Shown here: positions 24,735-29,850 of the stretch, in pieces
Layout: the number at the start of each line of letters is the position of its first letter
Numbering within the stretch: the first letter of the stretch is position 1
Assembly (NCBI GenBank): GCA_049323295.1
Contig: JBMOON010000040.1
Location: forward strand, 252,251-316,250
Length of the DNA: 64,000 nucleotides
Direction: 5' to 3'
Source: Pseudomonadota bacterium
GTDB taxonomy: Bacteria > Pseudomonadota > Gammaproteobacteria > Pseudomonadales > JADFDG01
The notes under the pieces: model-generated
The model's database searches: none
The model's input: the letters and a program-made list of their open reading frames with translations, nothing else
What the model was told of the DNA's origin: nothing
Position numbers and translations under genes: made by a program

Positions 24735-24843
24735 TACCGCCCGTTTTTCGTAGGCCTCCGCCATTGGGCGGGGGCGCGTTGCCCGGCTGCGGCAGCGTCC
24801 CGTATCCTGCCTGCGCTCTGCCAGGGACGTGGGTAAAACAACA

Positions 24844-26920
<2,077 letters not shown>

Positions 26921-26939
26921 GCGGCCGGTTTTTCCGGCT

Positions 26940-27344
26940 TCAGCTACCCAGATGCTTCGGCAGTACCAGGCGAAGCTCTTTGGCGCATTTGAGGAGAAAT
27001 TTTTCTTCCTTTCCGTTAGCTTCAATGCCCCGGAAGAATTCTTCGTTCCTGGCGTGTTCGTCACCGCTAATGCTGGGCATGTGCGAGACATTGAGGTCGG
27101 CAAGCCGTGGGGTCTTTTTCCTGTCGTCTATATCCGAGAGAATGCCGTTTTCGCGGGTGAAAATGAATATGAAGAATTCGTTGTCTCCTGGCTCATAGGA
27201 AACCCAGACAGAATTGCTCTTGCCGGTAAAGCTGGCGCGATAGTGGCGCCCGCTGATTGCGGGCGGGTCCATGGAAAACCCTAATGATTCCAGCGAAGGC
27301 TTGAATGCGCTGTGAACTATCCGCAAGAAGTCTTGTCCGTTCAT
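26940..27344 (-). CDS. Probable cognate immunity protein of the Rhs toxin
   Basis: Small, lower-GC ORF starting 9 nt after the Rhs-CT stop on the same strand; no recognisable domain. Confidence 0.7.
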   Translation of the reverse strand: MNGQDFLRIVHSAFKPSLESLGFSMDPPAISGRHYRASFTGKSNSVWVSYEPGDNEFFIFIFTRENGILSDIDDRKKTPRLADLNVSHMPSISGDEHARNEEFFRGIEANGKEEKFLLKCAKELRLVLPKHLGS

Positions 27345-27353
27345 GTCGTGTGC

Positions 27354-28265
27354 CTATTGCTTTTCTAGCTTGCTCCATTCGGGATGAAGCTTCCGGTAGT
27401 TCTTGATCATCTGCTGTTCCATGTCGTAGAAAATACTGGGTTTTCCCCGATTGGGGTCCCGCCCTATATCAAGAATGGGGCGGCCACTCCGTATTTGCTC
27501 AAGAATCCATTTTCGATTGTGCTGCATCATGGCGCTGGTGACTTGGTCTGCGCTCTTCCCTGACGCCCTGAAGTCGGGCATGTCGTTTAGGATTTTAGCA
27601 TTCGGGATCTTTGAGGCCGCTGCTTCAACACGGCCCATCGTCTCGCCGATGATGACTGGTCCTTTATCTGCCGCACTGGCCGCGCCGTTCACGACGCGGC
27701 CAGTTTTTAGGGCGGGTCCGGCGCCAGGTATTGGTATTGCTGCGCCGACAACATCCAAGCCCAAAGCGACAGCGGGCGGCCCAAGAGGGTCTCCGTTTGA
27801 GGCGGCAATCCCCATCTGAACTAAATCGACCAATATCAGAACGCTGCCTTCGGCAGCCGACTCTCCATTTGGGTCCACATACCTATATGGGCTGTTGTTG
27901 GCATAGACGTACCGCCCAAAAGTATGCGGATCGCTGTCCTTGAATTGCTGCGGATCAAGTCCGGTAAACCTCGCCGTCTCCGGGTCGTACATCCGGGCGC
28001 CCATATAGACGAGCCCGGTGTCGGGGTCTTCCGGCTTGCCGGTGTAGGCCGGACTGGCCGGGTTCTCTGGCGACTTGGTTTGGCGTTCGCCGTATGGCGC
28101 GTAGGTTTCACGCCACAGGACATTGCCCTGCTCGTCCATTGCTGCGGCCGGCGAGCCCAGCGCGTCGGGGGCGAAGTAGGTGACCCGTTCGGCGGCGTTT
28201 GCACCCAATGCTCCGAGAGCCAAGGTTGCGGCGGCCAACAGTACAAGGAGTCTAGTCTGGCGCAT
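27354..28265 (-). CDS. Short RHS repeat-associated core protein with Sec signal peptide and C-terminal putative toxin
   Basis: GGAGG RBS; MRQTRLLVLLAAATLALGALGANA signal; YF.PDALGSP, YAPYGE, YTGK..D..TGLVYMGARMYDP..ARF...DP, Y.YANNSPYRYVDPNG core; variable C-terminus. Confidence 0.88.
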   Translation of the reverse strand: MRQTRLLVLLAAATLALGALGANAAERVTYFAPDALGSPAAAMDEQGNVLWRETYAPYGERQTKSPENPASPAYTGKPEDPDTGLVYMGARMYDPETARFTGLDPQQFKDSDPHTFGRYVYANNSPYRYVDPNGESAAEGSVLILVDLVQMGIAASNGDPLGPPAVALGLDVVGAAIPIPGAGPALKTGRVVNGAASAADKGPVIIGETMGRVEAAASKIPNAKILNDMPDFRASGKSADQVTSAMMQHNRKWILEQIRSGRPILDIGRDPNRGKPSIFYDMEQQMIKNYRKLHPEWSKLEKQ

Positions 28266-28575
28266 GGCATCCTCCGTGATGCAAGCGGCGCGCAGTATCG
28301 GCATTCGGCCCGGCCCCCTGAAATAGGGATAAAGGCTCAAGGCGTGTGCGAGATATGCCCTATCCGCCGAACCCGGCACGACCCGCCCCCGGCTCGGCCG
28401 GGAGGTGTGTGGATTGCCCCGAGCGGTGAGCGAGGGGCAGGAGCACATCTTCCGCAGCACTCTGGCTGCGCCCCGTCGACCACCCGGTTTCCGGGGTGGC
28501 GGCAGACCCTCCGACCCCCTACAATCCCGGCCCCGAGGTCAGGTGCGACCCGGCACCCTGACCAAGCAATTCCAG

Positions 28576-28611
28576 AAAGCGAGATGAAGCCGGGCTTCAT
28601 CTCGCTTTTTT
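28576..28611 (+). promoter_or_regulatory. Terminator-like attenuator hairpin in the carA leader
   Basis: AAAGCGAGATGAAGC-CGG-GCTTCATCTCGCTTT-TTT, downstream of a TACAAT -10 (28520-28525) and ~110 nt upstream of carA. Confidence 0.65.
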
Positions 28612-28719
28612 GCAACCAGAATCAGCCAGTTAACTTCATCAACCATCCTTGCGGCCTTAGGTCGCGGGGAGGCTTCGCACAGCCTGATGAAGCACTGACC
28701 AACGATGTGGAGGTAGACC

Positions 28720-29850
28720 TTGGCCACGCCCGCCCTTCTCGCCCTTGAAGACGGCAGCCTGTTCCGCGGGGTCGCCATCGGAGCCACCGGTCAGTCGACC
28801 GGCGAGGTGGTGTTCAACACCGCCATGACCGGCTACCAGGAAATCCTCACCGACCCGTCCTACGCGCAGCAGATCGTCACCCTGACCTATCCCCACATCG
28901 GCAACACCGGCGTGAATCCGGAGGACGAGGAATCCGGCCGGATCTGGTGTACCGGTCTGGTCATCCGCGATGCGTCGATGGTCGTGTCCAGTTTCCGCGC
29001 GAAGCAGGACCTTTCCTCCTACCTGCGCGAGCGCAACGTGGTCGGCATCGCCGACATCGATACCCGCCGCCTCACCCGCATCCTGCGCGAGAAGGGCGCG
29101 CAGAACGGCTGCATCGTTGCCGGCGAACAGATCGACGAAAAAGCCGCCGTCGCCGCCGCGAAAAAGTTTCCGGGCCTGAAGGGCATGGATCTGGCGAAGG
29201 TCGTCTCCGCGACGAAGCCGTATGACTGGAAGGAAGGCACCTGGAAGCTCGGCAAGGGCCATCAGGGCGCGCCGGCGGCGCAGCCGTTCCGTGTCGTCGC
29301 CTACGATTTCGGCGTGAAGACCAACATCCTGCGCATGCTGGTCGACCGTGGCTGCAACCTGACCGTGGTGCCGGCGCAGACTTCCGCCGCCGACGTGCTG
29401 GCGCTGAAACCGGACGGCATTTTCCTGTCGAACGGCCCCGGCGATCCGGCGCCCTGCGATTACGCGATTGCCGCCATCCGGGAATTCCTGAAAACGGACA
29501 TTCCGGTATTCGGCATCTGTCTGGGCCACCAGCTGCTCGCGCTCGCTTCCGGCGCGCAGACGGTGAAGATGGGTCACGGCCACCACGGCGCCAACCATCC
29601 GGTGCAGGACATCGATACCGGCCGCGTGATGATCACCTCGCAGAACCACGGTTTCGCGGTGGACGAGAAATCGCTGCCGGCCAACCTGCGCGTCACGCAC
29701 CGTTCGCTGTTCGACGGCAGCAACCAGGGCATCCACCGCACCGACAAACCGGCGTTCAGTTTCCAGGGCCACCCGGAAGCAAGCCCGGGTCCGCACGAGG
29801 CGGACGTGTTGTTCGACCATTTCATCGATCTGATGCAGGCCCGTCGTTGA
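28720..29850 (+). CDS. carA: Carbamoyl-phosphate synthase small subunit
   Basis: [40 protein letters not shown]; TTG start after GGAGG. Confidence 0.98.

Follow-up and report, generated by a model that had tools for sequence, protein, structure and literature searches.

Within a 64,000-nucleotide stretch of a Pseudomonadales genome (Pseudomonadota bacterium, GenBank assembly GCA_049323295.1, contig JBMOON010000040.1, positions 252,251 to 316,250; hereafter the window, its genome being G000), two small genes lie antisense between dapB (26120-26920, + strand) and carA (28720-29850, + strand). The first, on the - strand at 27354..28265, encodes a 303-aa protein of the rearrangement hotspot (Rhs) type, which we call a toxin cartridge (P0001); its ATG has a Shine-Dalgarno-like GGAGGA 4 nt upstream (28270..28275, - strand, read from the sequence), and public gene calls place the start further upstream, giving 316 aa (P0003). 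The second, a candidate immunity gene (26940..27344, - strand), starts 9 nt past the P0001 stop and is an open reading frame (ORF) for a 134-aa protein without a signal peptide (P0002). We read this cassette, with a probability of roughly 0.65, as encoding an exchangeable half of an Rhs toxin that consists of two Sec-exported proteins; the other half, a shell of tyrosine-aspartate (YD) repeats, would be encoded elsewhere in the genome.

The cassette differs from its surroundings in composition, with a guanine-plus-cytosine (GC) content of 0.50-0.58 over 26850-28050 vs 0.64-0.74 in the flanks. Because dapB and carA are separated by 50-270 bp, without any cassette, in six genomes of the same genus (G001, G002, G003, G004, G006 and G007), we take it to be an insertion of ~1.57 kb, an islet spanning 26921..28485 as judged from the GC profile and the same-genus comparison. 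An earlier note, made from the letters of the window, had described a stand-alone mini-Rhs toxin-immunity cassette; its 303-aa ORF with a good ribosome-binding site, the small low-GC ORF downstream and the antisense position of the pair were all borne out.

The cartridge protein and its downstream neighbour

P0001 falls into four parts. Read by eye, residues 1-24 (28194..28265, - strand) form a putative signal peptide, MRQTRLLVLLAAATLALGALGANA, with recognizable n, h and c regions: MRQTR, then the Leu/Ala core LLVLLAAATLALGALG, then ANA, an AxA cleavage site followed by AE. The N-domain (residues 25-134; 27864..28193, - strand) consists of the last YD strands together with the Rhs-associated core, or plug, and is delimited by TIGR03696, by PDB sequence matches and by the complex model described below. 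TIGR03696 (Rhs_assc_core) matches residues 55-134 (E 1.2e-18, 67.3 bits, cut-off 32.5), while residues 29-59 resemble terminal YD-type strands at scores below cut-off (PF03527, 21.4 bits; PF25023, 20.7 bits); the PDB sequence matches of the N-domain fall in the C-terminal core of Rhs, toxin complex (Tc) and teneurin structures. The earlier note had the signal peptide fused directly to the Rhs core: the core is there, but not directly, as some 30 residues of terminal YD strand appear to separate the two. Those 30 residues are all that the chain itself holds of a YD-repeat shell, which is the product of a separate gene.

At the end of the core stands the motif P126-YRYV-D131-P-N-G134-E135. The Arg and both Asp of the autoproteolysis motif, which the earlier note had picked out along with YVDPNG, were indeed seen, and R91, D104, R118 and D131 are invariant in all 17 aligned family members, D104 being assigned to the first catalytic Asp by motif only. 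The residue after DPxG is Glu in P0001 and Glu, Arg, Lys or His across the family; the published consensus, as given in PMC8765631, is PxxxxDPxG[W/L/F].

The remainder of the protein matches the hydrophobic Gly/Ala linker and C-terminal domain of about 100 aa that had been expected. Residues 135-194 (27684..27863, - strand) are a hydrophobic, Gly/Ala/Val-rich pre-toxin linker, whose pattern is conserved across members with differing toxins; it aligns, among the PDB sequence matches, to hydrophobic post-core segments of SGS1/SGS4, and the equivalent stretch of a paralogue on contig 13 (C13) is matched by the first 80 positions of Pfam Ntox10. Residues 195-303 (109 aa; 27357..27683, - strand) are the C-terminal toxin domain, with a predicted alpha/beta fold and no Pfam or NCBIfam family, and they fold as one confident domain, with a model predicted local distance difference test (pLDDT) of 91. 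When P0001 was folded alone from a 17-row alignment, pLDDT was 30-42 for core and linker and 80-90 for the toxin domain.

Twelve proteins from other lineages, which bear various Rhs N-termini (source labels among them include Pseudoxanthomonas, Acidobacteria and Kiritimatiellae), end in a domain that shares 58-72% identity with the toxin domain, whose invariant residues include E208, the E of GETM, as well as an N and two D. Searches of Pfam and NCBIfam gave no match for it or for P0002. Foldseek against the PDB returned nothing for the domain at E<0.1, and VIA-align gave best Z-scores of 5-6.7, below the tool's noise level of ~7-8; these weak matches were to TIR/SEFIR domains, nucleoside 2-deoxyribosyltransferases, the related 1t1j and a CD38-like type VI secretion system (T6SS) toxin, 9ro8 being among the matches. 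In a language-model search of the Atlas, clusters without a name scored 0.89 and a single cluster of ADP-ribosyl cyclases 0.85. An activity directed at nicotinamide adenine dinucleotide (NAD) or at nucleotides is a doubtful lead.

P0002 has 180 homologues at 54-65% identity. One of them, QE250_16790, has the locus tag adjoining that of a toxin-domain homologue, QE250_16785, and two further ones sit on contigs equal in length to those of the toxin homologues P0004 and P0005. The linkage between toxin and P0002 is drawn from these locus tags and equal-length contigs because tblastn of P0002 and of the toxin domain against all fetched loci matched the window itself only; conserved linkage of this kind points to P0002 as a candidate immunity protein. 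Both the toxin domain and P0002 are, at the identities given above, unusually conserved across records with very different taxon labels, a pattern that suggests a probable horizontal spread of the pair in recent time.

A core-less shell gene and the point of the split

The 19 RHS repeat matches of G000 all sit on contigs 47, 50 and 46 (C47, C50 and C46), and none on C40, the contig of the window; the earlier note's statement that the window holds no YD shell was correct, and PAAR and VgrG, also said to be missing, were not searched by family. Its description of the cassette as stand-alone holds for the window but not for the genome (2.96 Mb, 99.4% complete, with eight Rhs-core matches, three of them short forms), where a core-less shell gene and two paralogous cartridges are found, as the note had proposed to look for.

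The shell, P0123, is encoded on contig 47 next to a broken cartridge (L008:1209-1884 and L009:5147-11563, - strand). It has 2138 aa, with a signal peptide, DUF6531, RHS repeats to about residue 1216, bacterial TSP3 repeats and ~480 further residues, and no Rhs-associated core was found in it. The contig-47 cartridge begins at the P0123 stop codon and is interrupted by a stop after codon 125, with its DPxG motif and linker gone; a TreTu_C-like toxin piece (E 3.4e-5, below cut-off) lies in another frame, followed by a 112-aa ORF. The second paralogue, on contig 13 (L005:1345-2739, + strand), is an intact 301-aa protein with a signal peptide and an Ntox10-type end, and its gene has a 159-aa ORF downstream. 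This copy, too, is distant from every shell gene, and its N-domain is 79% identical to that of P0001. Among all three copies the N-domains are 72-80% identical and the signal peptides differ, and at the DNA level the homology of the cassette within G000 is confined to the N-domain coding stretch of the contig-13 and contig-47 copies (77-78% over 244-326 nt). Since the cartridge beside P0123 is broken and the window copy lies far from a shell gene, the window copy would have to act in trans with P0123.

Among 30 relatives of G000, the short form occurs in G003 and G022, and G005 has a piece of it where a contig ends. In G005, of the same genus, and in G022, of a different family of the order, a P0123-like shell gene stands immediately upstream; that of G005 encodes a full-length 50%-identical orthologue. 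The 74%-complete G003 yielded no shell. Two other Rhs ORFs of ~2550 aa are encoded on contigs 50 and 46 of G000 (L002-L004, L007), one of them being followed by core-bearing frames of 828 and 197 aa.

The cartridge belongs to a larger family. A protein search yielded 121 relatives, many of ~300 aa, that share the N-terminal 135 residues and differ in their C-termini; the C-terminal domains in the 17 aligned members include TNT (2), Ntox10 (3), HNH, NucA/NucB and Peptidase_M15_4, giving at least five families on one N-domain, and the window and the inspected loci alike have a small ORF behind the cartridge gene. From a scan of one genome per species, with more than 600 candidate places, 68 loci were kept, mostly from Gamma- and Betaproteobacteria, including Pseudomonas, Acidovorax, Massilia, Marinobacter, Hahella, Microbulbifer and many metagenome-assembled genomes. 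In these, tblastn with P0001 residues 25-136 found 105 core copies. We counted as short any copy that has an upstream frame of at most 150 aa and does not sit at a contig end, and scored as signal-peptide-like any hydrophobic stretch of 12 residues (Kyte-Doolittle mean >1.8) that immediately precedes the conserved 'TYYHxD' start; by this heuristic, such a segment is present in 76 of 81 short copies. Cartridge genes also stand in tandem arrays of two to five, with a signal peptide on each (L046, L023, L036, L021 and L061). The possibility that P0001 is a truncated remnant of a full-length rhs gene, which the earlier note had named as a refutation, was rejected, its architecture with its own signal peptide recurring in those 76 copies; truncation does apply to the contig-47 copy.

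Within each of the arrays just named the N-terminal regions, signal peptide included, are near-identical and the ends differ. In four other places (L018:8222-10876, L020:9596-10882, L067 and L070) immunoglobulin-like (Ig-like) or FN3-like domains lie between signal peptide and core. Such extra domains occur on either side of the cut, at the shell C-terminus (L012, P0123) or at the plug N-terminus (L018 and L020, which keep their own signal peptides).

Shell and cartridge genes are closely linked. The first copy is long or fused in 10 of the 68 loci and short in 58, of which 14 have less than 4 kb of upstream sequence and 44 have flank enough to judge. Upstream of the cartridge and on the same strand, a core-less shell gene with a signal peptide is present in 34 of these 44: a P0123-like shell within 3 kb in 28 loci, and at 3.5-9 kb in six whose shell has a long C-terminal extension (for example L060). 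Of 18 loci inspected, 15 have a cartridge ORF that overlaps the shell stop or begins no more than 40 nt from it; in six the overlap is 4 nt. None of 15 shell proteins has a TIGR03696 match and 13 of the 15 match YD_repeat_2x; Pfam RHS_repeat is found in nine of ten scanned shells, some of which end in TSP3, Ig-like or DUF11 domains. One shell C-terminus (L066:5205-9917) reads ...GGSLGWLLILAMSSLVTRR..., which by eye resembles a GlyGly-CTERM sorting signal; several other shells end ...LLLN or ...LLLTD.

The sequences on the two sides of the cut fit together. The end strand of the shell, ...EYIYLGGKRIAQ..., and the start of the cartridge after its signal peptide, TVTYFHNDxLGSP, read as consecutive elements of an ordinary Rhs chain. 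Fused single-chain relatives of the cartridge family exist (L072, L074 and L076), and in L074 and L076 residues 931-1199 of P0123 and 29-138 of P0001 align to neighbouring segments; the shell end (~1216) and cartridge residue 25 therefore fall ~2-4 residues apart. Judged by these alignments, the two genes, each with a putative export signal, jointly correspond to one Rhs chain. A two-piece Rhs design of this kind appears to be common in bacteria. We found no description of a split, signal-peptide Rhs in the full-text literature, subscription journals and bioRxiv supplements lying outside its coverage.

Docking model, proposed mechanism and rival explanations

A complex of shell residues 350-1222 (cut to the size limit) and cartridge residues 25-140 was modelled, a check that the earlier note had proposed, and it passed its controls: the interface score ipSAE (interaction prediction score from aligned errors) was 0.86 in three of three runs vs 0.00 for the best control. 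In the tool's calibration this mark was attained by 116 out of 157 complexes of solved structure and by 2 out of 215 mismatched pairs, a rough guide here, where custom alignments were used. Partner pLDDT was 86, and the runs agreed on at least 95% of 196-199 contacts; those of lowest error join shell residues 1210-1214 to cartridge residues 27-31, the sheet being continued across the cut, and others line the last turns of the shell. The model thus supports a predicted docking of the cartridge on the shell. Together with P0123, the paralogues, the tight operons and the seamless split, it favours the split-Rhs reading that the earlier note had offered, in which plug and toxin load in trans.

On this two-protein reading, P0001 would be exported by Sec, as its signal peptide suggests, and in the periplasm its residues 25-35 would extend the last strand of the separately exported YD shell (P0123 in G000), the Rhs core (55-134) spiralling in as the plug that closes the shell, in keeping with the complex model and with homology to Rhs, Tc and teneurin structures. 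By the same homology, and with an atypical residue after the Gly, D104 and D131 may cut after DPNG and free linker and toxin inside the cage. The loaded cage would leave the cell by a T6SS-independent route; the TSP3 repeats and ~480 aa of the shell may bind targets, and the hydrophobic linker may aid the toxin in crossing the membrane. In the cytoplasm the toxin would act, perhaps on NAD or nucleotides, and the cytoplasmic 134-aa P0002 would neutralise it, as its conserved linkage suggests. More tentatively, the core-less exported shell could be a reusable container, loaded after export, in the periplasm, by plug-and-toxin cartridges that are encoded in arrays or scattered over the genome.

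Several observations weigh against a two-protein toxin. The DPxG motif is followed by a charged residue and not by W, L or F; cleavage may therefore differ, and autoproteolysis may be different or absent. The reading leaves unexplained how a toxin that follows the plug would enter a separate, already exported shell chain, and no conserved exporter was found upstream of the shell genes, where a secretin occurs in one locus (L045) and unrelated genes elsewhere. The success of the model may reflect memory of solved single-chain Rhs, Tc and teneurin cages, a matter of likeness and not of binding. Ten of the 44 judgeable loci have no shell within 10 kb; when five shell-less loci were followed to their genomes, three had shell genes elsewhere (one as a contig-end fragment only), G033 had a 152-aa shell remnant only, and in G035 none was found. 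On the side of expression, a scan of 26800-28800 found no sigma-70 consensus promoter. Finally, the shell-adjacent cartridge of G000 is broken, and the system could be decaying.

Some of these points could be turned into an argument that the cassette is a silent orphan module, a recombination donor able to replace the shell-adjacent cartridge and little, or not at all, expressed in place. The cassette is far from any rhs gene and has no promoter consensus, and the DNA homology of its N-domain to the contig-13 and contig-47 copies is a plausible recombination handle; short Rhs proteins, moreover, are judged in bioRxiv 10.1101/2024.02.26.582050 to be diversification spares, recombining and likely unexpressed. 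We nevertheless think this unlikely. The ORF is intact, with an ATG, a strong Shine-Dalgarno sequence and a signal peptide that is whole; 76 of the 81 short copies, among them every member of the tandem arrays, retain a signal-peptide-like segment, and the signal peptides of the three G000 copies have diverged yet are still signal-like. To our knowledge, the classical orphans of T6SS rhs loci, which lie downstream of a full-length rhs gene, have neither a start nor export signals of their own; the cassette has both, and there is no rhs gene on its contig. A silent orphan and an exchangeable half of a two-protein toxin are not mutually exclusive.

A toxin without a cage, the other route that the earlier note had allowed for, would use the N-domain as a trafficking or handling domain, the role proposed for the N-domain of MafB toxins, with Sec export followed by release through, for instance, a type II secretion system (T2SS), vesicles or lysis, independently of any shell. 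The shell-less loci and the genomes G033 and G035 speak for it, as do the two secretins of G000 and a hydrophobic linker that could itself serve membrane entry. This alternative has been weakened, and we rate it slightly below the silent orphan: the N-domain is a terminal piece of the beta-spiral, with a pLDDT of 30-42 alone vs 86 on the shell, its operon linkage to a core-less shell is tight and often overlapping, and its invariant catalytic-type aspartates make sense only inside a cage. Least probable of all is a decaying remnant that is non-functional in this organism, its genes still open only owing to recent insertion: the shell-adjacent cartridge is cut off after codon 125 with its toxin in another frame, and the cassette is recent, low in GC and not found at the site in six same-genus genomes, but the 2138-aa shell ORF is intact, with its full-length orthologue in G005, as are two cartridges and their downstream genes.

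Relation to known systems, genomic setting and meaning

For a two-protein, Sec-exported Rhs toxin, the Tc BC pair (TcB plus TcC, such as TcdB2-TccC3 and YenB-YenC2) is the nearest known design. There, as is proposed here, a YD cocoon is made from two polypeptides, the second of which brings the C-terminal core with its aspartyl autoprotease and a variable toxin that ends up inside, and several alternative toxin-carrying subunits fit one partner; residues 29-139 of P0001 match the TccC3/YenC2 core by sequence. The differences are considerable. TcC gives hundreds of residues to the shell, whereas the cartridge gives ~110 (last strands plus plug); both halves here carry putative Sec signal peptides, which Tc subunits are not known to have; no SpvB-type TcB domain (PF03534) was found in G000, in which TcA families were not searched; and the presence of a candidate immunity gene here points to bacterial targets.

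Single-chain Sec-dependent toxins of the RHS/WapA type have been catalogued as 'T2SS/Sec-dependent' (Zhang et al. 2012, PMC3482391). They share the signal peptide, YD shell, core, variable C-terminus and immunity gene, and differ in that the cut in the present family falls precisely ahead of the last strands and core, with a signal peptide on each piece, and cartridges stand in arrays and at distant loci. Likewise, MafB of Neisseria, as described in the same paper, has a signal peptide, a short conserved N-domain, a variable C-terminus, an immunity gene and tandem alternative cassettes; its N-domain, however, is DUF1020/MafB-N and not an Rhs core, and no partner cage is known.

T6SS Rhs effectors (RhsA, Tse5) and their orphan modules have in common with the cartridges the PxxxxDPxG core, a polymorphic C-terminus, an adjacent immunity gene and extra modules elsewhere. 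In contrast to them, the cartridges have no PAAR/VgrG context (not searched by family), the 99.4%-complete G000 yielded no gene for a T6SS sheath (TssC/VipB), and the residue after DPxG is charged; unlike the orphans of T6SS rhs loci, cartridges have a ribosome-binding site, an ATG and a signal peptide. Teneurins and mosquito SGS1/SGS4 give the best PDB sequence matches to residues 37-157, including the hydrophobic segment after DPDGE, but these proteins are eukaryotic and consist of a single chain; according to PMC8765631, the core of teneurins is not cleaved.

Several features surround the cassette in the window. Upstream of carA, a 33-nt perfect-type hairpin (28576-28608) shows 86-97% conservation among relatives, with matches to both strands, and could serve the dapB-carA spacer as terminator or attenuator; within 26800-28800, four terminator-like sites were found, within chance expectation. 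Just upstream of the cassette, a 61-nt stretch (28389-28449) recurs on another G000 contig (C51:8871-8929, 84%), and overlapping stretches (~28372-28454) have further matches on contig 50 of G000 and on three G003 contigs. A small repeat element bordering the insertion is one possible reading. Between dnaJ and dapB lies a 391-aa ORF (24829-26004, + strand) with a twin-arginine-like N-terminus and no NCBIfam match. Among the sequencing runs listed, no RNA run contains the cassette, and a single metagenome run, possibly the source of the DNA, contains most of it.

Rhs cages are a major scaffold of toxin delivery, from T6SS effectors and Tc insecticidal toxins to WapA and teneurins. If the cassette is indeed half of a two-protein, Sec-exported toxin, toxin loading could be tested directly by mixing separately exported cage and plug-plus-toxin, and such a pair would also be a modular cage-and-cartridge system for protein encapsulation. 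On the more tentative reading of a reusable container, encapsulation would take place in trans and after translocation, with a separate plug of 110 residues shutting the Rhs cage and capturing the toxin, and the short Rhs proteins now dismissed as unexpressed spares would include a large class of active toxins. With either reading, the annotation of ~300-aa 'RHS repeat-associated core domain' proteins, now read as fragments or silent spares, would change. For Gram-negative bacteria, the finding would mean a widespread, modular and T6SS-independent route of Rhs toxin delivery.

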